Shown one piece after another: positions 419 through 59,216 of a stretch of 59,669 nt of DNA. Origin of the DNA: a virus (Duplodnaviria; Caudoviricetes). The notes beneath the pieces were generated by a model. The model was given only the letters and a program-made list of their open reading frames with translations, did no database searches and was not told the origin of the DNA. A program made the position numbers and the translations under genes. The stretch spans positions 1-59,669 of the IMG/VR virus record IMGVR_UViG_3300027112_000002, one strand, 5' to 3'. How positions within the stretch are numbered: position 1 is the first letter of the stretch; each line of letters begins with the position of its first letter.

Positions 419-422
419 CGCT

Positions 423-5267: not shown

Positions 5268-5273
5268 GGTACT

Positions 5274-43210: not shown

Positions 43211-44950
43211 TTAAGAGTCTACAAATTGATAGGGCTTAGGGTCGATTGGAAAGGGAGCAGGGTCGTATTTCTTTCCTAGAATATCTTGCACTGTGCTGGT
43301 TAGGCACTCCTGCACTATGGCAAATTGCTTCTCCCGAGCGTCCTTGTCTGCATCCAATAACATGGCCACACTGTCATGGACTTGGAGTATTAATCGATTG
43401 GGCAGTCTATCCTCAATGCGCAGCATTGCCTCCCGCATCACTTCTGCCAGGTTTCCTTGAACGTACTGGTTAAATGCTTTGTATTCATGTCCTTTTTCAT
43501 CTTGTTGAATCCAACGGGGGCGGTTCGTTGCCAGCATGACCATGCCCGTTTGTTCAGTGGCCCTGGCCATGGCCTTAGCGGTGCTCATAGCGGTGGGAAA
43601 TCTCTTTCTAATGGTAGTCAAAATGCTTAGGGCTTCGTTTTCCGATATGCCGTTTGTGGCTGCGAATTTTACCTTGCCCACTTCATAAATGGCGGATAGA
43701 AGGGCTCGTTTGGCCATATAGCGTTTGGCAGTATCGTTCCAAATGACACGGGCCAAATTGTTGTATGGGTCATCCGTGGAGTCGGATACGGCTGCCAACA
43801 GGCTTTCATCACGGGATACTGTGGCGGCCAATCTTAATTCGGCCTGTTTGATATCCAGGGCCCATATTTGCACCGATGGGTCTGGACTTTTGAATATTCC
43901 GAACATAGACCCGAAGGCTCGATTTCCTCTTGCTTCCATGGGGATGCCTTGTGCATTTGGGTCCTCCGAAGACATTCGATATGATCTGGTGCCAAATGGA
44001 TTTAGCAAGGAGTGTAGGCGCTGGTCCCATTCTCCATGTTTTTCCATCACCTCCAGCCATGAACCTAGGGCCTTGCTAAGTTGCCTATATTCGATAACTG
44101 CAGACAAGTCTGGGTATCGGTCCAGGTCCAATTCTTCCAAAGTCTCTGCTTGGGTATTGGCTAGAGGTATGCCCTTGCTTATGGCATATCCCATAACATC
44201 CTTGGCGTAATTAGGATTGGATATACCCTGGGACACCAAGTGGGTGCCCAATTCAATCATGCGCCTACGATATGTCTTAATTCGGTTTTTGATGTGGTCC
44301 AGATCGAGAGGTATTCCACGTTCGACCAGCTGCATGATCAGATACATAAATCGCTGGTCCCATATATGGTTGCGCTTATAAAGGGATAGAGCAGGAACAT
44401 TCTTGAAATTGTCATATATCTGGAGTGTGCCCAGTGCGTCCTCTCTGGCATATTGGGCCACTATTTCTGCATCCATTTTGGCCAGGGACCCCCGCTTAGA
44501 TTTCATGTCTGCATAATCTTTGGGTACTGTGCCGACATACTTTCCCCGAAGGGTTTCTAAGGATACTCCAAGCGGTTGGGGAGCCAGATGGCGTGCGACG
44601 TGTTGAATTTCAACCACGTTAGCCATTGGTCGAAGGCCGTATTGCTTCATTAGGAAACGAAAGTCGAAGGAATGGTTAGCCATGGCTACTACCCTGGCCT
44701 TGGGTATAGCCCGTATCACATCATCTGATGATATAGTGCCAGCCACTCCCCACATAGGTATCTGTCCAGTTCCATAAGCGTCTAATAAATAGCAGGATTT
44801 ATATGCACCACTCTCTTGCCATCCCAGGGAAATACCAATGACCCTATCTTCCCATCTAAGACCAGTAGTTTCACTATCCAAGCCTATGGCCTCTACTTCA
44901 CCTGCCAGCATCTTGGCCGGATGGTCACCCATGAGCAGCAAATCAGACAT
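43211..44950 (-). CDS. polA: Family A DNA polymerase with 3'-5' exonuclease (DpoZ candidate)
   Basis: LDSETTG, NHSFD, YAREDA; motif A DIKQAELR, motif B RYMAKRALLSAIYE, motif C VHDS. Confidence 0.92.
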   Translation of the reverse strand: MSDLLLMGDHPAKMLAGEVEAIGLDSETTGLRWEDRVIGISLGWQESGAYKSCYLLDAYGTGQIPMWGVAGTISSDDVIRAIPKARVVAMANHSFDFRFLMKQYGLRPMANVVEIQHVARHLAPQPLGVSLETLRGKYVGTVPKDYADMKSKRGSLAKMDAEIVAQYAREDALGTLQIYDNFKNVPALSLYKRNHIWDQRFMYLIMQLVERGIPLDLDHIKNRIKTYRRRMIELGTHLVSQGISNPNYAKDVMGYAISKGIPLANTQAETLEELDLDRYPDLSAVIEYRQLSKALGSWLEVMEKHGEWDQRLHSLLNPFGTRSYRMSSEDPNAQGIPMEARGNRAFGSMFGIFKSPDPSVQIWALDIKQAELRLAATVSRDESLLAAVSDSTDDPYNNLARVIWNDTAKRYMAKRALLSAIYEVGKVKFAATNGISENEALSILTTIRKRFPTAMSTAKAMARATEQTGMVMLATNRPRWIQQDEKGHEYKAFNQYVQGNLAEVMREAMLRIEDRLPNRLILQVHDSVAMLLDADKDAREKQFAIVQECLTSTVQDILGKKYDPAPFPIDPKPYQFVDS

Positions 44951-45164
44951 CATCACCTTTCCAATCCGGTAAACTATGGACATATGCTGCTTTGGTTCGC
45001 CAAGTGGCCATACACCCAAGGCAGGTTATGCAGGAGTAGTCACTGGGTGTGTATTTATATCCATTGAAAGCTGAATAATTGCAGTTACGATTGATGACCG
45101 CCCAACGGCGAATATCGATCGGTTTAATACTTTCGGGACATTGGCATGCTGCGCCCTGTGACAT
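44943..45164 (-). CDS. Cys-rich hypothetical protein
   Basis: CxC, CxxC; tiled. Confidence 0.6.
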   Translation of the reverse strand: MSQGAACQCPESIKPIDIRRWAVINRNCNYSAFNGYKYTPSDYSCITCLGCMATWRTKAAYVHSLPDWKGDDV

Positions 45165-45358
45165 TAGCACTTGACCCTTTCGTCCTTAGGGGGAGCATCC
45201 TCCTCCAAGACAAGCCGCAAGGTATCAGCTACTGACTTAAGGTTGACCTGAATTAAAGCCAAGGGAGCATTGATCTGAATAAGTGCCGGCTTGTCATGGA
45301 GACGATCATCGTTCTCAATAGACTTTAGCATTATGATCAATTCCTCTTTGGTCTTCAT
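45164..45358 (-). CDS. Hypothetical protein
   Basis: AGGAG RBS; INAPLALIQ. Confidence 0.65.
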   Translation of the reverse strand: MKTKEELIIMLKSIENDDRLHDKPALIQINAPLALIQVNLKSVADTLRLVLEEDAPPKDERVKC

Positions 45359-45945
45359 GCCTTCTCCTTAATCGTGTAATAGCCATATCCCTTGGTTACA
45401 TCCCAATTGGTCATTGAGATGACAATAGTCCTTTTCCCCTGGGTGAGTTTGAGTCCATCCTCTGTTTTAATGGCGGTGATTGGTCCTCCTGTTGCAATGC
45501 ATATCTCAAAGATTTTGTTTATGTCCGCAGAATGCATGCATATGGATGCTCGAATAGCAAACTTCTCATCGGGTTCCTTTGCATCCACTTTGCGGCTCAT
45601 AATGGCGTCCCACATATCATCAAAGAATATGGCGGGCACTTTGCGGTTTGTCATCTGGAATAAAGCAATAATAGGTTTGGGGTCGGGAAGATTTAAGGGC
45701 TTTCCTTGAAATTCTTCTTCCCGTTCTTCGACAATGGGGGGTAAATTGAGGTTTTTTCTGCCCAAGGAACATTCTGAATTTCTGCATTTTTCGTAGATCG
45801 GCCATTTAGCGGGCTTGCCGTTCTTGCCCGTTTTGTGTCCATATTCCAAAAATGGCAGAATAGCATGACATTTGGGGCAGGGCATCCCTCTGTGGCCAAG
45901 TGCCCCTGCTTCATATATATTACCATCATGTGGATTTAAACTCAT
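45355..45945 (-). CDS. Protein with N-terminal zinc ribbon shared with gene 12154-12993
   Basis: CPKC..LPFLEYG.K.GK..KPAKWPIYEKC.N..C..GRKNL.LP. Confidence 0.75.
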   Translation of the reverse strand: MSLNPHDGNIYEAGALGHRGMPCPKCHAILPFLEYGHKTGKNGKPAKWPIYEKCRNSECSLGRKNLNLPPIVEEREEEFQGKPLNLPDPKPIIALFQMTNRKVPAIFFDDMWDAIMSRKVDAKEPDEKFAIRASICMHSADINKIFEICIATGGPITAIKTEDGLKLTQGKRTIVISMTNWDVTKGYGYYTIKEKA

Positions 45946-46141
45946 AGGTTCTCCTTATAATCGTTTTACATACACATTTCTATTTAAAGCAAAAGTGAAT
46001 TGCTTACGTAAGTCCTTCACTGGGATGGTGGGGTCAGTTCTATTGACAGTCAAGTCTATGACCAACTCTCCGCATACGGATATTACCATAGTCCGAACAT
46101 GATCAATCCTTATAAATTCATAAGGGCTATAGGCAATTATT

Positions 46142-46540
46142 TCAATTGACAAATAAGAGAGTGATGGCAAGGTCGTGATATCCTTCGCGAATACGTTTAA
46201 TAACGGGAGCGTGTGGAGTGATGGTGGCCTTGGAATTATAAAGTGATATCAATTCCAGGATTAGGGAATGCACATCTGATGGTCGATCATCAAGAGAGGG
46301 ACACGACACTCCGTTGTAGGAATGAGCACAGGCTACGGCCTCCACTATAAGCACTGTCTCCCTGGGTTTCAATTCAAGTGCCAATCCCAGAATGATGCGT
46401 ACCAAATATTCAAGCATAAAGGTGGGGTTGGCATTAGGTTCTTCGATCATGGTGCCGGCAGAAGGATAACGAATGGCAATTTCCTTATGTGGGGGCGGAC
46501 AGGGTACATAGGATTTTAGATACTTTGTGTGATGTGTCAT
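46142..46540 (-). CDS. Hypothetical protein
   Basis: ATGA coupling to the upstream DUF932 gene. Confidence 0.5.
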   Translation of the reverse strand: MTHHTKYLKSYVPCPPPHKEIAIRYPSAGTMIEEPNANPTFMLEYLVRIILGLALELKPRETVLIVEAVACAHSYNGVSCPSLDDRPSDVHSLILELISLYNSKATITPHAPVIKRIREGYHDLAITLLFVN

Positions 46541-47646
46541 TTCATTCCTTCCAGAACGTGAGCCATGGCTCGGGCTTTTGTCTTTGCGCGATTGCCCCAT
46601 AGGGTGCTTTCGAACATACCTTCCGGGCCGTCCCGGAAGTCTTCCGACTCCACTACGGCGTTCACGACGGCCCATCCGGTACGGGCTACCGCGGGCTGCT
46701 CGTCGTTGAAACGTTTGTAAAGATCAAACGTCTGGGAGCGCAGGGTTTCGATGCGAGCGCTGTCTCGTTCCCACACCTGGCCCACAGTGGCCAGACTGTC
46801 TGTGGCCCATGCCACGGATAGATTGAGACCGGCAAAGGAAGTAGTGTCGCTTGCGAATCCTGGGTCCACGGCCACAATCTCTTCGGCATCACGCAGCCGC
46901 TTTGGTTTTATCGGTTTGGGGTAGGACGCTGCAATAGTGGCAAGAGCCTGTTTGTCGGTAATGCCGTAAGCAGCAAGTTTGTCGAACAGTCCAAGAGTGT
47001 CTTTGACGGATTTGTCGATGCCCGCCATCAACTTGGCTCGATCAGCTACCTGGGCTTGCATTCCTTTGACATGCGACACCTTGACCGTGGTAATAGCCTG
47101 GGCCAGACCAAGGTTGAGTGTATTTTGACAGACAATGCGAACGGGAGTGAACACCAGCTTGAAGGCGGTTTTGCCATCACGACTTTCGATCAAAGAGAAG
47201 TAGAGCAGCAATTTCTCGCTCTCAATTCCCAGCACGTCATGCTCCCCATCCAGAAAGGCCACAAAGATGGTCTCGCCGCTGCCAAGGGCCCCCACGGTTT
47301 CAACCTTCCACTTATCTGCAATGCCGATTTCATCCAGGATGCGGGCCACATCCATATTTTGCAGGATTTCATACTTATCGGACACCAAGCCCAGGGGGGC
47401 CCATTCTTTGTCGTCCCCCGTCGGCTCCCGCATTAGAATATTCTGACCGGCGATCTGGAAGGATTGTGGGCGTCCGCCCGTGGGAATGTGGGCATAGATA
47501 GGTTGGGCATGGATTTTGTAGTCCAACCCCGCCAATTTGAAGGCCTCGGTCACAGAAGCGGGGCGATCTGCCAGGACCTTACCAATGTTGTGCCATGCTG
47601 GAACACGGACACTTAAGAACCGTCCACCAAAAATGTTTGCGCTCAT
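46537..47646 (-). CDS. DUF932 family phage/plasmid protein
   Basis: PAWH..G, AGLDY, VSDKYEILQN, ETVGAL, TPVRIVCQNTL, W...NAV.E. Confidence 0.9.
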   Translation of the reverse strand: MSANIFGGRFLSVRVPAWHNIGKVLADRPASVTEAFKLAGLDYKIHAQPIYAHIPTGGRPQSFQIAGQNILMREPTGDDKEWAPLGLVSDKYEILQNMDVARILDEIGIADKWKVETVGALGSGETIFVAFLDGEHDVLGIESEKLLLYFSLIESRDGKTAFKLVFTPVRIVCQNTLNLGLAQAITTVKVSHVKGMQAQVADRAKLMAGIDKSVKDTLGLFDKLAAYGITDKQALATIAASYPKPIKPKRLRDAEEIVAVDPGFASDTTSFAGLNLSVAWATDSLATVGQVWERDSARIETLRSQTFDLYKRFNDEQPAVARTGWAVVNAVVESEDFRDGPEGMFESTLWGNRAKTKARAMAHVLEGMK

Positions 47647-47684
47647 ATCATCTCCTTAATACTAGACTGTTTTGCGATACTCCA

Positions 47685-47713
47685 ATTATACCACTGCTCC
47701 TGTCCCTGGTCAA
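47685..47713 (-). promoter_or_regulatory. Sigma70-type promoter
   Basis: TTGACC-17 bp-TATAAT with TG. Confidence 0.75.
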
Positions 47714-48126
47714 GACCCTGAATAGTACAAGATGGCCCTATATACTTGATATGCAACTGTGAAAATTGCGGCAGCGACGGCCATAATTGAAAGCCAGTCT
47801 GTGTTTTGATGGGGAAGCTGATTGTGGATAGGCGAACCTACTGGGTCGGGGGGTTCCACTTCATGGGGCTGCAGCATTAAATTGTAGTCGTCGTCTTCTC
47901 CGGAAATATAACCCATTTCGTTCAGTAACTTAATACCTTCTTCCAGGCTGTCACATGGATAACCATTTTCCCCTTCCGTTCCTGTCTCGATCATTTCCAT
48001 TTCAGCTAAGACCATGCAAATAGTGCCAAATTCATGATATCCCTTTTTTGCATTGGCTTCTCTCTCCTCCTTATAAAACCATGCATGCCCCAGGTCATCA
48101 CGAATATATATAGTGTCTTTATCCAT
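47710..48126 (-). CDS. Hypothetical protein with C-terminal membrane anchor
   Basis: GGAG RBS; hydrophobic tail. Confidence 0.6.
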   Translation of the reverse strand: MDKDTIYIRDDLGHAWFYKEEREANAKKGYHEFGTICMVLAEMEMIETGTEGENGYPCDSLEEGIKLLNEMGYISGEDDDYNLMLQPHEVEPPDPVGSPIHNQLPHQNTDWLSIMAVAAAIFTVAYQVYRAILYYSGS

Positions 48127-48439
48127 TTTGTTTCTCCAATACTTCAATGAGCTTTAAGTGATCATGGCAGTGCATGCCCTTGTCATATTTGTGATTTTTG
48201 ACCAACTTGGCGCTGGAGGGCCACCACTCAATGAATAACTTGCCCTTACGGAAAATCCAATGGTGGTCATCACTGTTTACTTCCATAGACCACAGATTGT
48301 CTCGACACCACTGGCGGACAACCTCTTTATTGTCTATGGCTATTTGCTTCCTGCGCCGGTGCCTCTGCTTTGGGTCCTCCCCATGAATATAGGGAGCAAT
48401 TTCACTTTTACCCAGAGTTTGAATATCGGGTTTACCCAT
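48119..48439 (-). CDS. Hypothetical protein
   Basis: Tiled ORF. Confidence 0.65.
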   Translation of the reverse strand: MGKPDIQTLGKSEIAPYIHGEDPKQRHRRRKQIAIDNKEVVRQWCRDNLWSMEVNSDDHHWIFRKGKLFIEWWPSSAKLVKNHKYDKGMHCHDHLKLIEVLEKQNG

Positions 48440-48444
48440 AAAAA

Positions 48445-48849
48445 CTAATCCTCCGTGTCAATACTCACTGTGACAGATGGTTCAGATGTTGTGCCCTGAA
48501 CCTCAAGTTTGTATTCCTTGGCAATGGCCGTGTATTGGGGGGATGGCAAAATATCAATCGCGATAGAATCTGCCTGTGTTATCAACGCGACCTTTGCCTC
48601 AGCCACACGGCGGAACAATTCGTCAGTGATATTGGGGTCACCCCGTTTGTGGGCAGCCATGACTGCTTCCTTATAATTATAGGAAGTGGAGCCTTTGGAG
48701 TATTTGGCGCGGACCCCGGCTATTACCACGGTTTTGCCCTCTGCTAGGACCTGCTCTTTGATGGAGTATTCGACCCCTTCCAATGCTTGCTTTAGCTCCA
48801 GCCATTTCAACATTTGCTTAGCCAAAAATACCTGATCTATGTTACTCAT
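48445..48849 (-). CDS. Hypothetical protein
   Basis: Tiled ORF, AGGAG RBS. Confidence 0.65.
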   Translation of the reverse strand: MSNIDQVFLAKQMLKWLELKQALEGVEYSIKEQVLAEGKTVVIAGVRAKYSKGSTSYNYKEAVMAAHKRGDPNITDELFRRVAEAKVALITQADSIAIDILPSPQYTAIAKEYKLEVQGTTSEPSVTVSIDTED

Positions 48850-49739
48850 TTGTGCTCCTTTTTATATTGTTTTGCATATTTTAGGAGGGCGGCTCTGCCT
48901 TCCTCTTCCTTATTGACAGATTCATCCCACAGGTCTTCATCGCGCCATTTTAGCACTTCCTGAGCTACCAAATTGGCTAGGTCCGTAGGGCTTATAGCAT
49001 CTAACTCCCAGCAGCGTTTACCGAATTGAGACACATACCCTGCATGTCGCGAGTCAGTTTGCTTGGCCGTATTGGGAGGTGGGTTCCATCGCTCCACTTG
49101 GTCCATATTAAGGGCCAGACGCACCACATTGATGGATGAGCTATGACTGAACATTGCGATACGATCTTCTATATCGCGGGTCATATCCATGCCGGACGGG
49201 TCGTGGTCCCCCAAGTAGATTATGGTCACGTCCTTGCCATCTTCCTCAATTTTTGTGTTTATCCGTTGCCCCACTTCATACAATAGGGATATCGACCCAT
49301 ACCCCTTGTTGGCGGTGAACCGGACGTCCAATTCCCGGCAGACGGGTAACAGCACGCCCTCTAAAGCTTGCTTTTCCACCATTACCTCAATATGCACAGG
49401 CTGGGCGTCCCACTTATCCTCCCTGTACTGGCGGGCAGCTTGCTGCAGAATGTCTGCAGGGTCATCGAAGTGGGATAGGAAATGTGTCTCCCTGCCTCGA
49501 TCTTTGATCATGTCCCAGTCCAACAAGCCAGCCAGGCGAGCATCCGACACAAGCGATCCAAGGTTTTTATAGTCGCGCTGTGTGTTCGGTAACCAATCCT
49601 TGGCCACCATTTGATAGAAAAGCTGACGCAAGGACAGGTCATATCCCTGTTCCTGATAAGAGGTCATGATTAGATTAACTTGACCAATTATGGCTATACT
49701 CTTATCAGTGAATTTTTTGCGTATGAATGCTTCTTTCAT
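48846..49739 (-). CDS. wHTH-TOPRIM protein (TopoVI-A/Spo11-like fold)
   Basis: LRQLFYQ, VEKQAL, YLGDHDPSG, WELDA. Confidence 0.8.
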   Translation of the reverse strand: MKEAFIRKKFTDKSIAIIGQVNLIMTSYQEQGYDLSLRQLFYQMVAKDWLPNTQRDYKNLGSLVSDARLAGLLDWDMIKDRGRETHFLSHFDDPADILQQAARQYREDKWDAQPVHIEVMVEKQALEGVLLPVCRELDVRFTANKGYGSISLLYEVGQRINTKIEEDGKDVTIIYLGDHDPSGMDMTRDIEDRIAMFSHSSSINVVRLALNMDQVERWNPPPNTAKQTDSRHAGYVSQFGKRCWELDAISPTDLANLVAQEVLKWRDEDLWDESVNKEEEGRAALLKYAKQYKKEHK

Positions 49740-49751
49740 TGTGATTGTCCT

Positions 49752-49976
49752 TTATGTTTTTAACCTGGGAAAGTCCGGGTCCAGTTTAGCCAATTTATCC
49801 AAGGTTATATCCAGTTTCTCCCTTAATTCCTTTATTTGTGGAGATAAATATTCAGACAATTGGATGCCCGCAGCTTCATACGGCTTGCAAGCTTCCTGCC
49901 ATCTGGCATATTGAACCTTGGCCAAAGCCTTTAATTGATTAATGTCCCGTTGTGTTCTTTCTTCCTTTGTTGACAT
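49752..49976 (-). CDS. Hypothetical protein
   Basis: Tiled ORF. Confidence 0.6.
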   Translation of the reverse strand: MSTKEERTQRDINQLKALAKVQYARWQEACKPYEAAGIQLSEYLSPQIKELREKLDITLDKLAKLDPDFPRLKT

Positions 49977-49977
49977 G

Positions 49978-50265
49978 TTATCCTTCCGCGTTTGTGCCAG
50001 TGGTTATGTGGCAGGATGAATGGATGATCTTAACTTCGACCCGCTTGTGTTTCCAATTTCTATATTGGTGTTCAAGGCCATCCTGAATGTTAGCAGCCTT
50101 GGTCCAGATATCACACCAAGCATGTACTTTCCAGTGGTTGCGGTGCCCATTGATAGTCCATCTTACGACCACCACATAAGGCTTGCACCCAATGGCTCGC
50201 GTCTTTTTTACCAAGCCATTGGGCAGTTTTACAGTCACAAGGTGATATAATTTGGTCCTACTCAT
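49978..50265 (-). CDS. Hypothetical basic protein
   Basis: Tiled ORF. Confidence 0.5.
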   Translation of the reverse strand: MSRTKLYHLVTVKLPNGLVKKTRAIGCKPYVVVVRWTINGHRNHWKVHAWCDIWTKAANIQDGLEHQYRNWKHKRVEVKIIHSSCHITTGTNAEG

Positions 50266-50267
50266 GG

Positions 50268-50588
50268 TTATTGTCCACAAAGACGGCAGGGGGCATTATT
50301 GTCAATGGCTGGGCGGTTACGCGCTTCATGGACCTCGAAGCAGTGGTCCTTGTCGCTTCGTGCCAGTTCCAATTCCTTCTCGAAACCCGACTGGTGGTGG
50401 TATGTGGGGTTTCCGGACCCGTACGATGTCACGGAGTGGCAAACCGGGCATTCCAATTCGTCCACCCATCGGACCAGATAGGGGGCTTCCGGCTCAAAGG
50501 CCCATTCAATTATGGCTGAACCGACTTTCCTAACTCGCAATTCTGCGCAACAGGTGAGACAGGTGGGTTTTCCTATAAAGGCGCTCAT
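50268..50588 (-). CDS. Zinc-ribbon protein
   Basis: CLTC...CPVC. Confidence 0.6.
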   Translation of the reverse strand: MSAFIGKPTCLTCCAELRVRKVGSAIIEWAFEPEAPYLVRWVDELECPVCHSVTSYGSGNPTYHHQSGFEKELELARSDKDHCFEVHEARNRPAIDNNAPCRLCGQ

Positions 50589-50839
50589 AGGTTCTCGTAT
50601 GTCCTTCCTGAATTGGCTAGCGTAGGGAACAATTCCCTGGCCACTTGATGGCTTATCTCATCGCCATTTTGGGCTATTTGTTCATCCGACCATTCGGTAT
50701 TGCCCCGATAAGCGCACCAGCTTTGATCGCTGTGGATTACGGCCATGACCTTATATCCAAATCGGTCTCCGTTGCGTATTTCGTCCGGAGTGACCATATA
50801 AGAGCTAAGAGTGCCGTTTGCATTGGTTACACGGGTCAT
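50585..50839 (-). CDS. Hypothetical protein
   Basis: ATGA coupling. Confidence 0.65.
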   Translation of the reverse strand: MTRVTNANGTLSSYMVTPDEIRNGDRFGYKVMAVIHSDQSWCAYRGNTEWSDEQIAQNGDEISHQVARELFPTLANSGRTYENL

Positions 50840-51246
50840 GAGCGTCTCCCAGTCAGGAAGGCAACGCGTATTACTTCATCCCTTTTTAGAGGCTTTGCCT
50901 GTTCCATGAAGGCATCAAACCATAGTTGGAAGACTATATCTGGGTCCTCCTCTTCCTTTTCCTCTGCAAAATCGGAGATGTTGAACCCATCCTCATCTTC
51001 GTATTCGCACCATTCCCTGCCATCGAATTGTTCAAGGCCCCCCGCGTTGGAGAAATCGAGTTTTATGCGCTCATCCAACTGGTACAGGTCGTATTGAGCC
51101 AGGGCTGCGTAAAGGGTGACGGCGTGTGATACGCTTTGAACGGGGAAAAGGAAAGGGTTGTCTGATGGTACTTGCGGCATCCACCAAATCCGCAAGTCTC
51201 CCTTCTTGGCGTCTTCGAAAAAACTTTTGTCCTTATAACTATACAT
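50836..51246 (-). CDS. P22 gp17-like superinfection-exclusion family protein
   Basis: LRIWWMPQVP..PF...V......ALAQYDLYQL...IK.DFSNAGGL. Confidence 0.75.
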   Translation of the reverse strand: MYSYKDKSFFEDAKKGDLRIWWMPQVPSDNPFLFPVQSVSHAVTLYAALAQYDLYQLDERIKLDFSNAGGLEQFDGREWCEYEDEDGFNISDFAEEKEEEDPDIVFQLWFDAFMEQAKPLKRDEVIRVAFLTGRRS

Positions 51247-51583
51247 AATTCGCTCCTTTCGGAAATTTGTGTCCATATGGACGAAGGGTACGACCATCCT
51301 TTAATTGTAAAGTGATGTGGCCATGAGTTAATATATGGTGTTCCCGGCACAGATAAATCATTTTGTCTAGAAATAGCCACTCTAGGAATAGAATGCTGAA
51401 AAACCAAATTTTATAGGTGGTGTGGTGCACATCCATGTATCCTGTATTGGCATCGCATCCTTCAATTTGGCATTGGAAATCGGCTCGTATTTTGACACAT
51501 GCCTTTATCCATCTCCAATAACGGGTTCGTAGGTACCACTTTCTGTATATCAATACCTTTATGCTATGAAGCCAGGCTTTCAT
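51239..51583 (-). CDS. HNH endonuclease
   Basis: CQIEGC...DVHH..Y...LCREHH...H. Confidence 0.75.
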   Translation of the reverse strand: MKAWLHSIKVLIYRKWYLRTRYWRWIKACVKIRADFQCQIEGCDANTGYMDVHHTTYKIWFFSILFLEWLFLDKMIYLCREHHILTHGHITLQLKDGRTLRPYGHKFPKGANYV

Positions 51584-52109: not shown

Positions 52110-52437
52110 GTTGTCTCTCCTGGAGTTTAAACTCGTGGTGCATGATGGTTTGACAGGCGTTGCACCATACCCCCTCGTCCAACACGCGATTTGCGTAGGT
52201 GATGTGGATGGCAGGCTCCTCTATATCCTTCACTCCACATAGACGGTTTGTGCCGTTGGTGGTGATATGCCAAACGCGCATCATCTTCGGAAAAACCTCG
52301 TCTGCATGACTATTCAAGTATTCAACGGCCAGCACGGCCAACTCTTCATCACTATATTCCCTTATCCATGAGTCCATGGACATTTTACCGATCTTTTCCC
52401 TCAACCTATCAACTGCCTTTTGAAGTTGTTGGTTCAT
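52102..52437 (-). CDS. Hypothetical protein with H..C..CxxC zinc motif
   Basis: WH...LCG...CNAC. Confidence 0.6.
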   Translation of the reverse strand: MNQQLQKAVDRLREKIGKMSMDSWIREYSDEELAVLAVEYLNSHADEVFPKMMRVWHITTNGTNRLCGVKDIEEPAIHITYANRVLDEGVWCNACQTIMHHEFKLQERQHG

Positions 52438-52660
52438 CCTTCCTCCTTTCCTTTTCTATCGCAGCCTCATAGCAGGAGGCGTGCACCAAAATCTCTCCAT
52501 CCAATTGATAAAAACGGCGGCCATACCCTATTTCCTCATGGCAGTATGGGCATTCGCTACCGGCCATGGTGCGAGTCTTGTCGCAATCGATATGACCACA
52601 CAGCAAATTTGTACAGGGGCCTATTGCAGACCCTGGCTGTGCTATGACGCCGGCGGCCAT
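52409..52660 (-). CDS. Zinc-finger protein
   Basis: CxxxxCxHxxC...CPYC...HASC. Confidence 0.65.
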   Translation of the reverse strand: MAAGVIAQPGSAIGPCTNLLCGHIDCDKTRTMAGSECPYCHEEIGYGRRFYQLDGEILVHASCYEAAIEKERRKDEPTTSKGS

Positions 52661-53046
52661 TAAGCCTCCGTTGATGGTAATTCGTCAACCAGCATGGACA
52701 TTTCTGCAGGTGTGGGATTGATTTCGTATGGCAGGGGGTTCGGGTCCGTCTGGAATAGAATTTCCAGATTATCGGAATTGAAGGCATCCTTGAATTCCTT
52801 CAACAGGTCGGGGAAATCAGCCTGTTGTGGAATTTTGGTGAATACCTCATTATTTTCCTTCTCCGTCCATGGTAAGTCACCTATCACCATGTCACACAAA
52901 AGGTCATGCACGGTGCTCTTGATCTGATACCATGGGATTTCTTCACGGAATTTGGCCACCCAGGTTTTGGCCCAGGCATCCGTGCTTGAGCTATCGATCT
53001 TGGTCTTTGCAAAATCCTCGGTAAGTCTGCTGGTTATGTTGGTCAT
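52660..53046 (-). CDS. Hypothetical acidic protein
   Basis: AAGGAGATGAACCG-ATG. Confidence 0.65.
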   Translation of the reverse strand: MTNITSRLTEDFAKTKIDSSSTDAWAKTWVAKFREEIPWYQIKSTVHDLLCDMVIGDLPWTEKENNEVFTKIPQQADFPDLLKEFKDAFNSDNLEILFQTDPNPLPYEINPTPAEMSMLVDELPSTEA

Positions 53047-53153
53047 CGGTTCATCTCCTTTTAATTGGTTGGCGCGTACGGATGGCGGGTGAGTTAGGCT
53101 AGGACTCACTTTACCTTTCCCGGCTAGCACGGCACACCATCCGCACCACGCCC

Positions 53154-53183
53154 ATTATACCATAGTCTTTCATCCCCTGTCAA
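53154..53183 (-). promoter_or_regulatory. Sigma70-type promoter followed by a structured leader
   Basis: TTGACA-18 bp-TATAAT with TG. Confidence 0.75.
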
Positions 53184-53622
53184 TGTCCTTGGTGTCAAAT
53201 ATGGCGGAAGTCCATGGGCCGGTGCGTGTTCTTAATTCGTATCCTTCAAGGTACTCCGTCATGAGCCTAAATATGTAAGGGACCTGTTCGTCTACTAATT
53301 CAGGGTGGGCTGGTTCCTGGGTTTCATTGTCTATTACTGGCATTACAACCAAGGCCAGGCCATTTGTCTCCAAATTCTTAACGCATACCTGCGTCACCCC
53401 ATTCTCAGCCCAAACATTCATGTCACCCTGCCATTTAAGGGAGTCGTATCTAACCCCATAAAAGGCAGGAGGAAGGGAGGCCAGCACGTTCTCATATAAA
53501 TTGTTGGCCCAGTCCTCGATGGCATCCTGAAAGTTGCCCTCGTTCTCTTCAATTGGGCAACCCACATACACCATTCTGTATTCGACCCCGCCTATGTGGG
53601 GGAAAAAGTTTCCTGCTCCCAT
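53170..53622 (-). CDS. Hypothetical acidic protein
   Basis: Tiled ORF. Confidence 0.65.
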   Translation of the reverse strand: MGAGNFFPHIGGVEYRMVYVGCPIEENEGNFQDAIEDWANNLYENVLASLPPAFYGVRYDSLKWQGDMNVWAENGVTQVCVKNLETNGLALVVMPVIDNETQEPAHPELVDEQVPYIFRLMTEYLEGYELRTRTGPWTSAIFDTKDIDRG

Positions 53623-53623
53623 T

Positions 53624-53875
53624 TTATGTTCCTTTCTGGTGTTCGATGGTTTCGGCCACGTCTATATCCCAACCGCGAGCCACCATCTCTTCTCCATCTG
53701 ACTTATAGTGCCCAGTCAAACGGGAGCCTGCAGCAAAGGGGTGCATACCTGGGCCTCCTTCTACTACGAAAATACGTTCGTCCAACTCCTGAAACATCCC
53801 AAAATGTGCGGATTTGGATATAACCACTTCCTCTCCGGGTTCAATTACTCTGCACAAATTATTCATTTTCACCAA
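53624..53875 (-). CDS. Hypothetical protein
   Basis: Tiled ORF. Confidence 0.6.
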   Translation of the reverse strand: MVKMNNLCRVIEPGEEVVISKSAHFGMFQELDERIFVVEGGPGMHPFAAGSRLTGHYKSDGEEMVARGWDIDVAETIEHQKGT

Positions 53876-54405
53876 GCCATGTAGTTTGATCGAAGCGCCA
53901 CAAATCCGCTGCCCAAGGTTTTCTTATCTGACAGATTGCCCCCTCCATGAACATATGTGAGCCAATACATCACTTCCTCCAGCCGGTCAATGGTGCATAT
54001 TACTGTTACGGATTTATACGGCAGTGCATCGTGCCATACCGGACACGTCGTAGGGTAGTCCCCGGCCACCGGGACGGTCCCGGAGGGCAGTCCGCGGGCC
54101 ACCACCATACCCCACGATGTACGTTCCATTTTGTCCAAATCAAACGTGCCCCACACATCCTCCTTGGTTAACTCCTCTCCCAAGGGAGGCAATAAGGGTT
54201 GGGCCGGGCGAGCATATTCCGCCTCGATGATCTTTTGCATTTCGGGAGTGGTTGACTCCTCACCATTTATCATACCAAGAACATTGAAACTGGAAATGGG
54301 AGTGAGGTTAGATGTTAGCACACTCCGAAAATATAGGACATTGTTGTGTCTCCATATTTCAGTCTCACATTGGGCTTCACATTCACATTTTGCTATTGGT
54401 CTCAT
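53869..54405 (-). CDS. Hypothetical protein
   Basis: AAGGAGGACCC RBS. Confidence 0.7.
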   Translation of the reverse strand: MRPIAKCECEAQCETEIWRHNNVLYFRSVLTSNLTPISSFNVLGMINGEESTTPEMQKIIEAEYARPAQPLLPPLGEELTKEDVWGTFDLDKMERTSWGMVVARGLPSGTVPVAGDYPTTCPVWHDALPYKSVTVICTIDRLEEVMYWLTYVHGGGNLSDKKTLGSGFVALRSNYMAW

Positions 54406-54688
54406 TATTGGGTCCTCCTTTAAAGGGATATATGATAAACAGGCTCACTGGGACCGGCTCGGTTTGGCGCTGGTCATTTACCACTTTGAACATAGCGAAG
54501 TTTATTTTATCGGAAAGAATTTCGATATGGATATCCCATTCTTCGCCATCCGCAGTTTCCATGGTCAACCATTCATCGTCATTTACCAGAGTAAAATAAC
54601 TCTCGGATATACCCTTTTGAATGGTCAACTTTCGCTCGGCCACTATGTAGGTAGCTTCGAATTTAGATTGCGACATACTCGTCTCCAT
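54383..54688 (-). CDS. Hypothetical protein, paralogous to the C-terminus of 57895-58581
   Basis: DDEW...GE.WD.H motif. Confidence 0.65.
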   Translation of the reverse strand: METSMSQSKFEATYIVAERKLTIQKGISESYFTLVNDDEWLTMETADGEEWDIHIEILSDKINFAMFKVVNDQRQTEPVPVSLFIIYPFKGGPNNETNSKM

Positions 54689-55130
54689 CCCGCAGATATC
54701 GGAGAAGGTTAATCACATCGCAACCGGCAGAGTCCGCCTCCCTGTCTTCAACGGCATCTTCCAACCACTGCAGACACTTGGTAAGATCAACAACGGGCAC
54801 GCGCACCGGCCACATGTCTGAGCCTACTTCCGGCCTACCGCTTTGTACCCACTGCCATAGACGGTTTCCGATTTCCTTATCTGTGCATTGTTCATCCTTG
54901 AGCATCTGGATGGCATCGGTCAAAGGGGCGGTCAATCGTCCGCGCAGGGCATCAAGCAGCAGATAGTTTCTTACCAGCCCGGTGACCACTTCTTCATATC
55001 CATCTGAATGGACGTTATCGGCATCCTCGATGGCAATGCCTATGAGTAATGATTGCTCTGCCACTATGGGGTCCAGACCATAGGTGTTGACCACATAATC
55101 GATAGCCTCCTGTGCAGTATTAATGGGCAT
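54663..55130 (-). CDS. Hypothetical acidic protein
   Basis: GAGGAGGACCC RBS. Confidence 0.65.
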   Translation of the reverse strand: MPINTAQEAIDYVVNTYGLDPIVAEQSLLIGIAIEDADNVHSDGYEEVVTGLVRNYLLLDALRGRLTAPLTDAIQMLKDEQCTDKEIGNRLWQWVQSGRPEVGSDMWPVRVPVVDLTKCLQWLEDAVEDREADSAGCDVINLLRYLRDGDEYVAI

Positions 55131-55491
55131 TTGGGTCCTCCTCTTTACCATATCCGAATTCTGCGCCAAGGTTGGGAAGGTGGACGGTTATCTCTCCTTC
55201 AACCGGCTCCAGTGAGGGAAGGATATCGTCAGGCACGACCAACTCGCCTTCTTCAATGGGCGTGCCGGACAGCAGGTTGACCAGCCAATTCTGATATTCC
55301 TCGACCCGCTTGTCCTTCACGCCTTGCGCAATATTCAGGGCGGCGGTTTTTTGTCGTACGCCTTCTCCCACTTGCTCCACTCCCAGCATGGGGATGTAGG
55401 TCTTCTTGGTGTGGGCCGCATTCCAGTACTTATTGGCCCACACTTCGGCCTTAGCCGGGTTCAAACGGATGTTTTGCTTGGGTGTATCCAT
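55120..55491 (-). CDS. Hypothetical protein
   Basis: TAATG coupling. Confidence 0.65.
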   Translation of the reverse strand: MDTPKQNIRLNPAKAEVWANKYWNAAHTKKTYIPMLGVEQVGEGVRQKTAALNIAQGVKDKRVEEYQNWLVNLLSGTPIEEGELVVPDDILPSLEPVEGEITVHLPNLGAEFGYGKEEDPNAH

Positions 55492-55946
55492 TAATCTTCC
55501 TCCTCTTCAATAAAACCCATAATCTGGGTATCGATTAAATATTCTCCGAATGTGAATATGCCTTCATGGTAGCTCACGGTAAACGGTTCGAGGAAGTCAA
55601 ATACCTGTCCTCCGCTTAGGTAGTCCCCATCGCAGACTTCAAACGGCATGATGGAAAGCTGCCCTGTATCCACTCCGTAGGTGTTCCCGTGCTGGTCGTG
55701 GTATGTACCGTCTCCGTGGAGCGTGCCATGCACAAACCCCACTCGTCCGTTGTAGATGAATAGGCCGTCGTTGAAGTTGCGTTCATTCATGGGCAGACTT
55801 TCAAACTCTTCAAAATCTCCCATCATGTATCCAGTTGTTACAATCAGCCTATCCCAGTTTTCATCCTTCACGGCATAGCAGGGGTCGCCTATCCAGTACT
55901 TGCCAGCAGGAAAGGGGTGGTCATTGGTGTGATCATTTGGTCTCAT
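55491..55946 (-). CDS. DUF4241-like protein
   Basis: YWIGDPCY...GDGTY...GVDTGQL. Confidence 0.6.
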   Translation of the reverse strand: MRPNDHTNDHPFPAGKYWIGDPCYAVKDENWDRLIVTTGYMMGDFEEFESLPMNERNFNDGLFIYNGRVGFVHGTLHGDGTYHDQHGNTYGVDTGQLSIMPFEVCDGDYLSGGQVFDFLEPFTVSYHEGIFTFGEYLIDTQIMGFIEEEED

Positions 55947-56598
55947 TGTTGCCTCCTCGTTCCGGCATCCAAAGTCTGCGAGCCTTCTTGCCTGGGTCCT
56001 CCTGTGGGGGTTCTGCCAGTTTTGCTTTACGTTTGTCGTATTTAACTATCCTGTCCCCATATGTCTGCACATGTTCTGGATTATCCTTATCAAACAGGAA
56101 GACGGATATGTCACCATAGTAAATACCGTCATAGTAGATAAGGTCACCTTTGGTTGTGAGGAAGTCTATGGCCCCACCCACATTAGGGTCACTTAGATAT
56201 GCCATATGGAAGTATTCAATATCCAGGAATACTGGTCCCTGACTACCCCAATCTTCCAGATTTTGATCTGGGTCCTCCCTGCCATGATATAGCTCAATGG
56301 CCAGGCAGACGCGGGGCTTTTTGGCTTCCTGCTCTGCTAGAAATTCCTCATATTTGGCCATTATCTTGGGTTCCGCCTTGGCATAATCCATATCAACGAT
56401 ACGACTAGTTCCAAATAATGGAACGAATTCGCCCATGGTGGCGTCCTCCTGTCCTTCTTCGTGCAGGTAGTCTCCGTCCATGTCGTGCATGGGCAGCCCT
56501 ATGTCGTCCCCGTTTGACTCGTCATCAAACTCGTCACACACGTGGCCTTCGAGGTCCTCGAAAAACTTCTTACACCAACCGCACTGTTCCTCACTCAT
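55933..56598 (-). CDS. Acidic early protein
   Basis: GGAGGACCC RBS; LYHGREDPDQNLEDWG...YYGD. Confidence 0.7.
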   Translation of the reverse strand: MSEEQCGWCKKFFEDLEGHVCDEFDDESNGDDIGLPMHDMDGDYLHEEGQEDATMGEFVPLFGTSRIVDMDYAKAEPKIMAKYEEFLAEQEAKKPRVCLAIELYHGREDPDQNLEDWGSQGPVFLDIEYFHMAYLSDPNVGGAIDFLTTKGDLIYYDGIYYGDISVFLFDKDNPEHVQTYGDRIVKYDKRKAKLAEPPQEDPGKKARRLWMPERGGNNETK

Positions 56599-56849
56599 TT
56601 GGGTCCTCCTTCCTGTTTTCTGTACTCTGGTAACATAAACCATCTTTTCTTAAGTCCATAGACGCTTATGTAGCCGGGGATGGAAATACCGATTGTCCGA
56701 AGTCCCTTAAGCCTCCAATAGGTGAAATCGGGGCGGGAGCTAACGTGTACGTCCAGCTGGCCAATGGTGGAGAAGAATTCCTCCTTCTCCACTTCGACCA
56801 TTCCTCTGGTGACGGGATTGATGGGTTGGGGAATATCAGAATTTTCCAT
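56595..56849 (-). CDS. Hypothetical protein
   Basis: Tiled ORF. Confidence 0.6.
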   Translation of the reverse strand: MENSDIPQPINPVTRGMVEVEKEEFFSTIGQLDVHVSSRPDFTYWRLKGLRTIGISIPGYISVYGLKKRWFMLPEYRKQEGGPK

Positions 56850-57390
56850 AGTACCCCATCAGATGCCAAAATTCGGCCCAGGCCTTTTTACAGAAACCGC
56901 ACACGACCACTCGCTCCACCTTCCCATTAATATCGCTTCCGAAGGGGGAGTAGATCAAATTTTTATTCTGGCAGTAAGGACATTCGGTTTCGTCAATGTT
57001 TTGCAGGATGTACTGTTCATTGCTCATGGCGGGAGGGTCAAGCGGGGTTGGTTCCCCGTTTTCGTCCACTGCCCAGTCAAGCTGCTTGGTGGGGAGTTTG
57101 CCGGTTGGTAGACCCTCTTCCAATGTCAAGCTTTCCACCCATGCATGCCAGCTTTCGAAGGTTTTAGAAGCCAAAATCCATCCTTCGAGATTGGAGGTCA
57201 TCAGGGCGAATTGTCTAAGCGCCTGGGTCTTGGTCATCACATGCTGTCCGCTTGAGGGAGAGTTAAGGGGAGTGCGGAAGTGGACCATCACTTGATCTTC
57301 GTGGGTGTACCACTGCTCAACTCCCAGGGTTGCTTCATGAAGCAGCATGGCAATCAGTTGGGGAGAATTGGCCTTTGGTTCCTTATTCAT
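56836..57390 (-). CDS. Early protein with C-terminal zinc ribbon
   Basis: GGAGGACCC RBS; CPYC...CGFC. Confidence 0.7.
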   Translation of the reverse strand: MNKEPKANSPQLIAMLLHEATLGVEQWYTHEDQVMVHFRTPLNSPSSGQHVMTKTQALRQFALMTSNLEGWILASKTFESWHAWVESLTLEEGLPTGKLPTKQLDWAVDENGEPTPLDPPAMSNEQYILQNIDETECPYCQNKNLIYSPFGSDINGKVERVVVCGFCKKAWAEFWHLMGYYGKF

Positions 57391-57898
57391 CGGGTCCTCC
57401 TTGTTTAATCCATTCTGCCCATCGGATTTGGCTCCATCGAGACATAATCCAATCAATGCTCGCATTAAGGAATACATGCTTCTCTATGGCACTGGTGCGG
57501 TCCAAGATCGTGGGAGCAAGGGGTCGGGACATGAGTGGCTCATCTGTGTAGATAGCTACATGGTCATCAAGGGTTGGCCACCATGTTTGCTTTACACCCG
57601 TTTTCGTATTAAAGAATATGGCTACAGGCATCATCGATGCATCGTCTTCCTTAATTTCAGCTTCTTCGTCCATAGAGGCAAAGGCGTTAAAGTTTGGGTC
57701 CTCCTGTGCAGTTTCCTCGTCCAGTTCGTTCCTGTCCTCTGCATCGATTTCCTTAAATAGGCGGTTTTCCCAGTCCTTGTGCATGGTTTGCCAGTCACGG
57801 CCATCGGGAATATGAGGATGAAGGGCGTTTGGGTCCTCCCGTTCGGCATCCTTGTCCCTAAAGGAGTCAAACCTGTGGTGTGAACGTCCTACGCTCAT
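57383..57898 (-). CDS. Acidic early protein
   Basis: GGAGGACCC RBS. Confidence 0.7.
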   Translation of the reverse strand: MSVGRSHHRFDSFRDKDAEREDPNALHPHIPDGRDWQTMHKDWENRLFKEIDAEDRNELDEETAQEDPNFNAFASMDEEAEIKEDDASMMPVAIFFNTKTGVKQTWWPTLDDHVAIYTDEPLMSRPLAPTILDRTSAIEKHVFLNASIDWIMSRWSQIRWAEWIKQGGPDE

Positions 57899-58581
57899 CG
57901 GGTCCTCCTGCTGTGAATGGTGAGGATAAGGGGAGTGCTGATGGAAGTAAGGCTTTCCCCGTCCTTAACTGGGTAGACTGAAACCTCCACACAGCCGTCT
58001 TCAATCAGAAGATGGACATCCCAAACCTCTCCGTTGTCAAGCGTGACCGCGGACCACTCATCGTCCTCCATGAATTCAATGTCAAACCTCTCTGCAATCA
58101 AAGTCCCGCTTTTATAGGTGACATCGATAAAGAGTGACAAAACCCTCTGATGAACAAAGTACACAGCCCTAAAATCCCGCCGCAAGATGGCGTCCAGATA
58201 CGGCTCTGGGTCCTCCTGATAGACGTCCGTTTTAGCTACCACTGCCGTTTCCGGTCCGCGGTTAAGCAGAGCACACAATAGCTGAATTGACTCGTACAGG
58301 CTATTGAGATTGTCCGCTCCCTCTTCCATATCCGAAGGGCGGGGAGGAAAGATGTCCAGTGTCTTGCTGTCCGTCCGCCACTGGATGTCGAAAGGAGTGG
58401 TCTGGTCCAAAAAGTCACTTACCCTTTGCTGAGTAGAAAGGGAAACGCCCAGATTAAAGACCATCGTAACCTTGGCTTCCCGCGTCGGATAGGCTTGCCC
58501 TGGGTCCTCCTGCGGGGGATGGGAAGGAGAAGGAAGAACGGGTCCTCCTGTACTCCCTTTGTCCGTGCTTTTGTTTTTCAT
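57895..58581 (-). CDS. Early protein, first gene after promoter 58637-58666
   Basis: GGAGGACCC RBS. Confidence 0.7.
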   Translation of the reverse strand: MKNKSTDKGSTGGPVLPSPSHPPQEDPGQAYPTREAKVTMVFNLGVSLSTQQRVSDFLDQTTPFDIQWRTDSKTLDIFPPRPSDMEEGADNLNSLYESIQLLCALLNRGPETAVVAKTDVYQEDPEPYLDAILRRDFRAVYFVHQRVLSLFIDVTYKSGTLIAERFDIEFMEDDEWSAVTLDNGEVWDVHLLIEDGCVEVSVYPVKDGESLTSISTPLILTIHSRRTR

Positions 58582-58636
58582 TGGGTCCTCCTGTTTGACC
58601 AAAAAACGAATGGGGGCGTAGAATGCGCCATACCCG

Positions 58637-58666
58637 ATTATACCACGGGATTTAATGCGGTGTCAA
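58637..58666 (-). promoter_or_regulatory. Consensus sigma70-type early promoter
   Basis: TTGACA-18 bp-TATAAT with TG. Confidence 0.85.
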
Positions 58667-58703
58667 GGGGCTGGATGTCCGCATAGGAAAGGAGTCTTGA
58701 CTG

Positions 58704-58846
58704 GAAAAAAGAGTAAAAAACGGGGGATTGAACCCAAGGATGCCTCGATGGTTGCGCAGGGGCGCAAGCGAATGTCCGCTTGGTTTTCCCCGGTTTCTCC
58801 TTCGCAGCTTACCTAAGCGAAGAGCCGGTTTTAGGCCGGCTCTTCG
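58704..58846 (-). terminator. Hairpin (CGAAGAGCCGG/CCGGCTCTTCG) then a long irregular stem with U-runs; terminator and possible small RNA
   Basis: Inverted repeats by eye; poly-T on the minus strand at about 58704-58720. Confidence 0.5.
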
Positions 58847-58858
58847 TCCATTCCCCTT

Positions 58859-59059
58859 TTAGCTGTTTTCGTGCTCTTTGTCTTCCAGTAGGTCAACTAA
58901 GCGCGTCCTGTCCACTCTGGTGGTTTGTCGCTTGAACAAACCGCTTTCCTCTCGCATTCGTCGGGGAAGGGGTTTGCTGTCCTTCTCTTCGATTGCTTCT
59001 ACCAGTGCGTCTAACTCGTCGTCGCTTATTCGTTGTCCTTTGACCAGAATCCTTGCCAT
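58859..59059 (-). CDS. Small charged early protein
   Basis: AAGGAG RBS. Confidence 0.7.
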   Translation of the reverse strand: MARILVKGQRISDDELDALVEAIEEKDSKPLPRRMREESGLFKRQTTRVDRTRLVDLLEDKEHENS

Positions 59060-59216
59060 TGCCTACTCCTTTTGTCCGTCCGCTTCTTAGCGTCCGCGTC
59101 CGTGCGTGTCCACGGGGACGGGTATTCCTTACGGGTCCTCCCGTTGGGGGTTGTCGTTGGCGTACCCGAACCGCCTTCCTCTGGTCTTTCCCCGCTGTGA
59201 GGAAGGCGGATGCGCG

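Follow-up and report, generated by a model that had tools for sequence, protein, structure and literature searches.

The genome of an uncultured phage (Duplodnaviria; Caudoviricetes) is given in IMG/VR virus record IMGVR_UViG_3300027112_000002, whose full length of 59,669 nucleotides (nt) is the window analysed here. It carries the nine-nucleotide word GGAGGACCC, a full GGAGG core continued by an invariant ACCC, in 17 copies on the - strand and in none on the + strand. The word is selected at the nucleotide level and is not a peptide signal. With a rough probability of 0.4, A-GGAGGACCC-R (R, purine) is a cis-acting recognition tag on an immediate-early messenger RNA (mRNA), which would be read in single-stranded form by a sequence-specific factor that shuts the operon off.

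Copy number, orientation and exactness of the motif

Read on the + strand the motif is GGGTCCTCC, the form in which an earlier note on this DNA had listed it. The word is present at all 17 positions listed there, and the whole genome holds no copy in the opposite orientation. It is the commonest 9-mer of the genome, the next unrelated one reaching seven copies, and in 100 dinucleotide-preserving shuffles it averaged 0.66 copies with a largest value of 3, so that none of the 100 reached 17. All copies fall within 43959-59141. Fourteen are packed into 54410-59141, a cluster of 4.7 kb that had been given as 4.8 kb, and the ~29 kb of late genes hold none. The motif is therefore far from equally frequent on the two strands (17:0) or in the two arms of the genome (late arm, 0).

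Copies with one mismatch number six on the motif strand and three on the other, which is the background level; two of the six (56441 and 45481) keep an ACA prefix. Since near-copies do not rise above background, all nine positions appear to be read. The flanks are also constrained: position -1 is A in 12 copies, and position +10 is a purine in all 17 (13 A, 4 G).

The 17 copies and one near-copy are the following, where E-D-P and G-G-P are the tripeptides encoded by the motif, aa stands for amino acids and ORF for open reading frame. Gene starts are ORF-based predictions, as are operon borders and promoters.

59133..59141, - strand: intergenic copy, lying 66 nt before the start codon (ATG) of a 66-aa ORF (58859-59059) and also upstream of the predicted early promoter
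58583..58591, - strand: Shine-Dalgarno (SD) copy of the first early gene (ATG 58581, 228 aa), 39 nt past the predicted transcript start
58540..58548, - strand: intragenic copy spanning codons 12-14 of the 228-aa gene, where it encodes G-G-P
58502..58510, - strand: intragenic copy, E-D-P reading frame
58208..58216, - strand: intragenic copy, E-D-P reading frame
57900..57908, - strand: SD copy (ATG 57898, 171 aa), overlapping the end of the upstream gene (ATGA)
57831..57839, - strand: intragenic copy, E-D-P reading frame
57696..57704, - strand: intragenic copy, E-D-P reading frame
57392..57400, - strand: SD copy (ATG 57390, 184 aa)
56601..56609, - strand: SD copy (ATG 56598, 221 aa)
56441..56449, - strand: one-mismatch copy GGAGGACGC with ACA prefix, in the E-D-P frame, where it reads Q-E-D-A
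56270..56278, - strand: intragenic copy, E-D-P reading frame
55994..56002, - strand: intragenic copy, E-D-P reading frame
55133..55141, - strand: SD copy (ATG 55130, 155 aa), doubling as E-D-P at the end of the upstream gene
54410..54418, - strand: SD copy (ATG 54405, 178 aa)
50942..50950, - strand: intragenic copy, E-D-P; the gene encodes a GP17 superinfection-exclusion-like domain and belongs to the second transcription unit
48372..48380, - strand: intragenic copy, E-D-P, in a basic 106-aa ORF
43959..43967, - strand: intragenic copy, E-D-P, in the gene for the family A DNA polymerase, at its conserved S-S-x-D-P-N block

The sequence at 56441 is possibly a decayed or nascent copy. A start-codon check of all exact copies gives 6 SD copies, 10 intragenic ones with no usable start and 1 intergenic, the same split as in the earlier note.

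Relation to gene starts and ribosome binding

The six SD copies end 1, 1, 1, 2, 2 and 4 nt before the ATG of the 228-, 171-, 184-, 221-, 155- and 178-aa ORFs, respectively, so that 5-8 nt separate their GGAGG core from the start codon. For 17 copies and ~59 starts in the 30.4 kb of total - strand-coded territory, the binomial P of six such placements is about 3e-9. The start of the 228-aa gene is backed by an independent database gene call of equal length. Other genes of the phage have ordinary AAGGAG-type sites.

Ribosome binding does not account for the whole motif. ATG, GTG and TTG are absent within 10 nt after nine of the ten intragenic copies, and the ATG that follows the tenth (43959) opens only a 40-aa out-of-frame ORF inside the polymerase gene; a role of these copies as internal starts is thus rejected. 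The ACCC segment is invariant and presumably unable to pair with the 3' end of 16S rRNA; therefore something besides the ribosome appears to read the motif, and an extended SD sequence is likewise rejected. The view that SD function explains neither the invariant ACCC nor the intragenic copies, put forward before this analysis, is upheld.

The motif could still be a ribosome-loading or mRNA-stabilising element without a dedicated reader. Strong SD-like words near the 5' end and further along the early transcript would hold 30S subunits, and the copies would then capture ribosomes early in infection or shield the RNA from 5'-end-dependent decay; SD-like 5' stabilisers are known from Bacillus. 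This would agree with the GGAGG core, the six real SD sites, the peak density near the 5' end and an operon rich in GGAGG (27 in the 5.4 kb of the motif-loaded operon described below vs 38 in the 29-kb late block). However, it leaves the invariant ACCC and the purine unexplained: among the 55 sense-strand GGAGG of the early block, 17 are continued in exactly the same way. In the late block sense GGAGG is not rarer than antisense (38 vs 33) and therefore gives no sign of special selection on internal SD-like words. Such an element seems quite unlikely, and simple sequestration of ribosomes, suggested previously, also fails to explain ACCC.

Selection at the nucleotide level

Nine of the ten intragenic copies read G|GAG|GAC|CCA, that is x-E-D-P, and one reads G-G-P, so that the motif does force these peptides, as had been remarked. 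The preference for one frame has a P of about 0.001. Conversely, all ten E-D-P tripeptides in 58 - strand ORFs are written with the codons GAG GAC CCA and a fixed preceding G, at codon-family shares of 40% for GAG, 50% for GAC and 27% for CCA. The late genes have a single E-D-P, written with different codons. When synonymous codons were shuffled within the same 58 ORFs, the motif occurred 2.17 times on average (standard deviation 1.31, largest 7 in 500 shuffles) vs 15 observed, so that the motif is over-represented by a codon-preserving shuffle as well. Because of the identical E-D-P codons and this excess, the motif is selected as a nucleotide sequence.

A need for the E-D-P peptide in early proteins, or a chance or compositional effect, could be invoked from the nine E-D-P copies and the acidic nature of the proteins. 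This is hardly credible: the codon evidence refutes a peptide signal, and six SD copies and an intergenic one, together with the failure of any of the 100 dinucleotide shuffles to reach 17, stand against either version.

The copy in the polymerase gene (43959) illustrates how such words may arise. Six of six relatives in the protein database (44-61% identity) have S-S-x-D-[PIL]-N at this place and none has E-D-P; therefore this copy arose by in-place substitution or is a single chance copy. The copies thus appear to be made in place, where the protein tolerates them.

A predicted motif-loaded operon behind a consensus promoter

A whole-genome scan finds only two sigma-70 promoter matches of 12/12, both on the - strand with a TG-extended -10 and an 18-nt spacer. 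They bracket the region where the motif is dense.

58637..58666, - strand: predicted early promoter, with TTGACA, 18-nt spacer and TG-extended TATAAT; transcript start predicted near 58630
53154..53183, - strand: second perfect sigma-70 match, downstream limit of the motif-dense unit
53184..58630, - strand: predicted motif-loaded immediate-early unit with about 13 ORFs and 13 motif copies, its extent taken from the promoters

The 5.4 kb that separate the two promoters contain 13 of the 17 copies (binomial P 2e-7 on 30.4 kb), at 39, 82, 120, 414, 722, 791, 926, 1230, 2021, 2352, 2628, 3489 and 4212 nt from the predicted start. They are densest in the first 1.2 kb of the predicted transcript and become sparser with distance. 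Two of the remaining four and one more stand in the next two units, and the last lies upstream, between two - strand ORFs. The density gradient across the early region described in the earlier note is real as a thinning with distance, but is better described as one loaded promoter-proximal operon, because 13 of 17 copies stand between the two perfect promoters. This motif-rich block is predicted to be a single transcription unit behind the consensus promoter and is presumably immediate-early. Its products are mostly acidic ORFans (pI 4.1-5.2), which are typical of transient host-takeover genes. None of its ORFs has a Pfam or PHROG function, and the first early protein (228 aa) has no homologue among 5.8 billion proteins.

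As the main rival to an RNA tag, the arrangement could also be that of an oriented array of operators or roadblocks on DNA, in which a post-early phage protein bound to a duplex site of 9-10 bp would halt the host RNA polymerase beyond the early promoter. It would resemble the stoperators of Cluster A mycobacteriophages, except that it would serve a lytic phage and a single operon. A site that is exact, asymmetric and in a single orientation relative to transcription would suit this role. So would the three copies within +39 to +128, where a roadblock is most effective, and the intragenic placement, as expected of sites on DNA. Upstream, the same strand encodes basic proteins (2523-2894, 2833-3138, 3498-3866 and 59217-59645), one of them (2833-3138) with a weak PHROG match to transcriptional regulators (E 5e-4), and further basic proteins are encoded in the middle region (48119-48439, 49978-50280 and 51239-51583). 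A word compatible with SD function would also let sites be fitted at little cost into a densely packed operon. Yet no copy covers the promoter and none lies in the late arm. Neither an integrase or recombinase nor a recognisable repressor was found (six-frame search; Pfam, 50 ORFs), and one would have to put down to coincidence or secondary adaptation both the full GGAGG core and the exact SD spacing seen in six copies. We hold such an array to be rather unlikely.

Three further promoter matches (11/12 with TG) are found at 674-646, 47713-47685 and 37542-37514, so that all five high-quality TG promoters are on the - strand and the late (+) strand has none of that quality. This suggests that early and middle units on one strand are driven by the host polymerase and that late genes need another activator.

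Within the operon, the C-terminal half of the first early protein (57895-58581, - strand) and a 101-aa ORF (54383-54688, - strand) have a domain in common (26% identity over 72 aa, E 5e-8), which suggests a paralogous ORFan domain. The stretch that separates the 66-aa ORF from the early promoter (58700-58860, - strand) contains a perfect 10-bp hairpin, GAAGAGCCGG / CCGGCTCTTC, followed about 80 nt further on by a stretch resembling a tRNA T-arm and then by a T-run. The unit upstream probably has its terminator in this region, where scans called neither a tRNA nor an Rfam family.

RNA structure and search for a reader

The motif has an unpaired probability of 0.40 in its own context and of 0.41 with shuffled flanks, and no RNA structure is shared around the copies. 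The absence of a common structure fits a linear single-strand target, as in the RegB/S1 system of phage T4. Scans for tRNAs and Rfam families gave no matches. A phage antisense RNA as partner of the motif was considered and rejected, the wobble-tolerant complement GGGTYYTYY being at chance level outside the 17 sites (9 times vs about 10 expected). The only basic protein of the operon (84 aa) has an AlphaFold2 model with a pLDDT of 45, and ESM Atlas look-ups of this protein and of the 66-aa ORF returned nothing usable.

A proposed shut-off tag on early mRNA

In the mechanism that we favour, one sequence-specific factor of phage or host origin, either a nuclease or a tight RNA binder, would read the tag as single-stranded RNA. 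At the six ribosome-binding sites, translation would stop once the tag is cut or blocked, and the intragenic copies, densest in the first 1.2 kb, would provide extra entry points for decay. The operon would in this way be switched off after the early phase. The logic would be that of the RegB/S1 system of T4, although the target here is much longer and of another sequence. For its intragenic copies the phage would have used the frame that costs least in proteins able to accommodate E-D-P. Two features favour a reader that acts on RNA rather than on DNA: a functional ribosome-binding site forms the centre of the word, and the copies crowd towards the 5' end of the transcript. The absence of an integrase or serine recombinase makes a lytic temporal switch the relevant biology. 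Sites of RNA processing or shut-off, or binding sites of a phage or host protein, were among the candidates of the earlier note and remain the best class.

In its most specific form the proposal is that a linear "barcode" of 10-12 nt on immediate-early mRNA is read, with nearly the exactness of a restriction enzyme, by an ORFan protein or a host factor that destroys or silences just that operon; we regard this as doubtful. That the barcode would at the same time serve as ribosome-binding site and as in-frame codons is put forward just as tentatively.

Several points weigh against a tag of this kind. Specificity for 9-10 linear nt is, to our knowledge, beyond that of bacterial and phage endoribonucleases. 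No RNase or RNA-binding domain was found in the ORFs scanned (Pfam, 50 ORFs; PHROG, 40 ORFs), a six-frame search with PF10715 gave no RegB homologue at E <= 1, and a six-frame search gave no CsrA homologue. That the effect on expression is negative, rather than one of protection or enhancement, is purely our conjecture. Because every copy is in sense orientation in transcribed DNA, reading as RNA, as non-template strand or as duplex DNA would leave the same pattern and cannot be told apart from it. The promoters and the extent of the operon rest on consensus matches, and the evidence on motif placement comes from one genome. Finally, the RegB/S1 target nearly excludes C (PMC1702504), against a 3' context of CCC here.

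Comparison with known repeated motifs

The closest described motif is the start-associated sequence (SAS) of Cluster K mycobacteriophages. Both are short asymmetric repeats with an SD core followed by conserved C residues that we take to be non-pairing. Both keep to one orientation (17:0 here) and to the non-structural arm, in similar copy number, and typically have ATG starts close behind them. As described by Pope et al. (2011, PMC3203893) and in PMC12699233, SAS is a 13-bp word, GGGATAGGAGCCC, of temperate actinobacteriophages, with 11-19 copies per genome in one orientation in the non-structural arm, and its function was unverified as of 2025. Nearly all SAS copies lie 3-7 bp before a start codon and 6 of 125 lie within ORFs (PMC12699233), about half have an upstream inverted repeat, ESAS (PMC3203893; PMC12699233), and the authors state that the conserved C residues cannot pair with 16S rRNA (PMC3203893). 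The phage motif differs in being 59% intragenic (10 of 17) vs about 5% for SAS by the same source (PMC12699233). Only 6 of its 17 copies precede a start, 13 are gathered in one operon behind one promoter, and it has no ESAS-like partner. The words themselves are different, and the phage is unrelated to Cluster K, apparently lytic and without DNA match.

The RegB endoribonuclease of T4 acting with S1 is taken as the best precedent, because an unstructured GGAG target in the SD sequence of early mRNAs there ends the early phase. According to Durand et al. (2006, PMC1702504), the target is linear, unstructured, ~11 nt long and begins with GGAG, mostly in the SD sequence of early mRNAs, and its cleavage selectively inactivates early messages. 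The 7 nt 3' of GGAG are A-rich and degenerate, GGAGAAUAAAA, with C almost excluded (PMC1702504). The likeness lies in the GGAG of six SD copies and in the unstructured RNA, "early" being here a prediction from the promoter. In contrast, the phage motif continues G-A-C-C-C with the invariant ACCC, and the genome has no regB homologue. RegB targets are cleaved endonucleolytically within the motif during infection.

Stoperators are asymmetric sites in and between genes of both arms, oriented with transcription and bound by the immunity repressor of a temperate phage; their effect on expression is negative and they include an operator at the early promoter. Those of Cluster A mycobacteriophages are named in PMC3203893. 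The phage motif shares with them the many copies of a short asymmetric site, oriented with transcription, in and between genes. It differs in the lack of a lysogeny gene (six-frame search) or repressor family (Pfam, 50 ORFs), in the empty late arm and in the distance of the nearest copy, 39 nt past the transcript start. The stoperator analogy drawn in the earlier note is weakened by the lack of integrase and recombinase and by the absence of copies from late arm and promoter; DNA binding as a class still stands among the rival explanations.

Chi sites are over-represented in one orientation throughout a genome, independently of the direction of transcription. Here, in contrast, a single unit of 5.4 kb has 13 of the 17 copies and the 29 kb of late genes have none, and the motif is rejected as a Chi-like recombination signal. 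The sponge RNAs of the CsrA/Rsm systems present repeated GGA motifs in hairpin loops. The phage motif holds two GGA, but it shows no loop preference (0.40 vs 0.41), its invariant CCC is no part of the GGA motif of such RNAs and the genome has no csrA (six-frame search). The motif thus lacks features by which stoperators, RegB targets, Chi sites and CsrA sponges are defined.

An oriented pattern spread over the genome is shown instead by two other words. TGGTGGTG occurs 14 times on the + strand vs once on the - strand, in late and early regions alike (e.g. 557, 7167, 16341, 19894, 26756, 29212, 50392 and 52257), and the octamer GCTGGTGG, which we take to be the Chi sequence of E. coli, five times vs none genome-wide. 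The bias may reflect a Chi-like orientation, or it may follow from Gly-Gly codons in tail genes.

Occurrence in other genomes

A DNA search of the phage database with positions 54000-59669 gave no match, and single-protein locus searches with an early ORFan and with the polymerase gave no loci. tblastn with the polymerase, the terminase, a PHROG-matched early protein and the topoisomerase-like protein reached remote phages only, the best phage-database matches to the polymerase being 24-26% identical. The motif is absent from Pseudomonas phage NP1 (NC_031058.1) and from positions 1-50000 of Pam3. An alignment-based locus search gave one metagenome contig of 2.4 kb, with no motif copy, and nothing in viral and genome collections.

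A scan of viral contigs for pairs of the motif yielded at least 119 stretches, and a scan for pairs with the CA prefix yielded 19. The loci with the highest counts have spacings in multiples of three and are read as probable Gly-Gly-Pro or collagen-like repeats. Four of these loci were matched only remotely by ORFs of the phage (26-34% identity), none of the four with a motif array. A scan for the SD form as a 15-mer gave 59 loci with a single copy each. In bacterial genomes motif pairs occur at 68 loci, many in records of Actinomycetota; those with the highest counts are regular tandem repeats, and none has a tblastn link to the phage. No comparable array was met in another viral or bacterial record in these scans of public collections. 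A full-text literature search for the exact 9-mer gave no phage motif among the matches listed, which deal with unrelated subjects in eukaryotes or in viruses of animals and plants.

Phage NP1, which has 47% identity in the topoisomerase-like protein, has strand-biased 9-mers of its own, CTGTGGTCA (12:4) and GTGTGGTCA (10:3). Oriented repeated words may thus be common in siphoviruses of this type.

These scans also bear on the possibility that the motif is a strand-specific site of DNA processing, such as a Chi-like signal, a nickase site or a junction for cassette exchange. Strand-specific nickase sites occur in T5 and phiKMV-like phages. An exact word kept strictly on one strand would suit this role, and the genome has an HNH endonuclease gene beside the terminase genes and a second, weak HNH-like ORF (E 8e-4). 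However, a Chi-like signal should spread genome-wide regardless of transcription, whereas the motif is mostly in one operon (13 of 17), and the six precise SD placements would go unexplained. Ten of the 17 copies are inside genes, off the cassette borders, and no such array was found in the other viral and bacterial records searched. A site of this kind is very unlikely, and for the last two reasons the recombination points for cassette shuffling suggested in the earlier note are unlikely too.

Genome organisation

The IMG/VR record is a circular assembly of 59,570 nt with an exact terminal repeat of 99 nt. Circularity agrees with a 59.6-kb contig in a public run, whose end joins its start. 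Three DNA runs of one sediment/groundwater study carry the identical sequence with zero variants, and no RNA run is listed as carrying it. Pfam and PHROG matches together with the ORFs divide the genome into two oppositely oriented parts.

about 5975 to 35091, + strand: late genes, among them small and large terminase, a protease-like protein and a tape-measure protein
35072 to 59669 and on through 1-5902, - strand: most of the remaining genes

Genes on the - strand code for a family A DNA polymerase with a 3'-5' exonuclease domain, a PurA-like enzyme, a DnaB-like helicase, a DnaD-like loader, a DUF932 protein, the topoisomerase-like protein and many ORFans. A six-frame search of the genome found no tyrosine integrase or serine recombinase, and the phage therefore looks lytic.

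The PurA-like protein (41401-42489, - strand) has among its best matches of solved structure 7vf6, the 6fm1/6fko set and 7odx (titled PurZ), which include PurZ-type enzymes of phages; we take 6fm1/6fko to be PurZ of phiVC8 and 7odx that of S-2L. Its gene stands two genes from that of the polymerase (43211-45019, - strand). The phage may thus replace adenine by 2-aminoadenine (Z-genome). A 145-aa ORF neighbouring the PurA-like gene has no PDB match, and DatZ and MazZ were not identified.

In the region of the head genes, a 1113-aa protein (8794-12135, + strand) contains a MutT/NUDIX-like segment (residues 698-850, PHROG E 2e-20) and, besides it, a weak portal match. The HNH endonuclease gene (5274-5696, - strand) adjoins the genes for small and large terminase, an arrangement found in HK97-like cos phages. 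By analogy, the physical genome ends may lie near 5.9 kb.

Significance of the motif

Oriented repeats that contain an SD core have been known in non-structural genes of phages since 2011, as SAS, and this genome is a sharper case: the word is exact, selected as nucleotides even in coding sequence and concentrated in a single promoter-proximal operon. It leads to a simple prediction of one reader, one operon and a temporal switch. It also illustrates how a packed phage genome fits a regulatory word into its proteins, by keeping to a single frame (E-D-P) and to the same codons and by substituting in place. A reader that acts on RNA would have an unusually long linear specificity and would be potentially useful as a tool. 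If the barcode proposal is true, the phage would carry a new family of sequence-specific RNA-targeting system and would offer a mechanistic model for the unexplained SAS motifs of mycobacteriophages.

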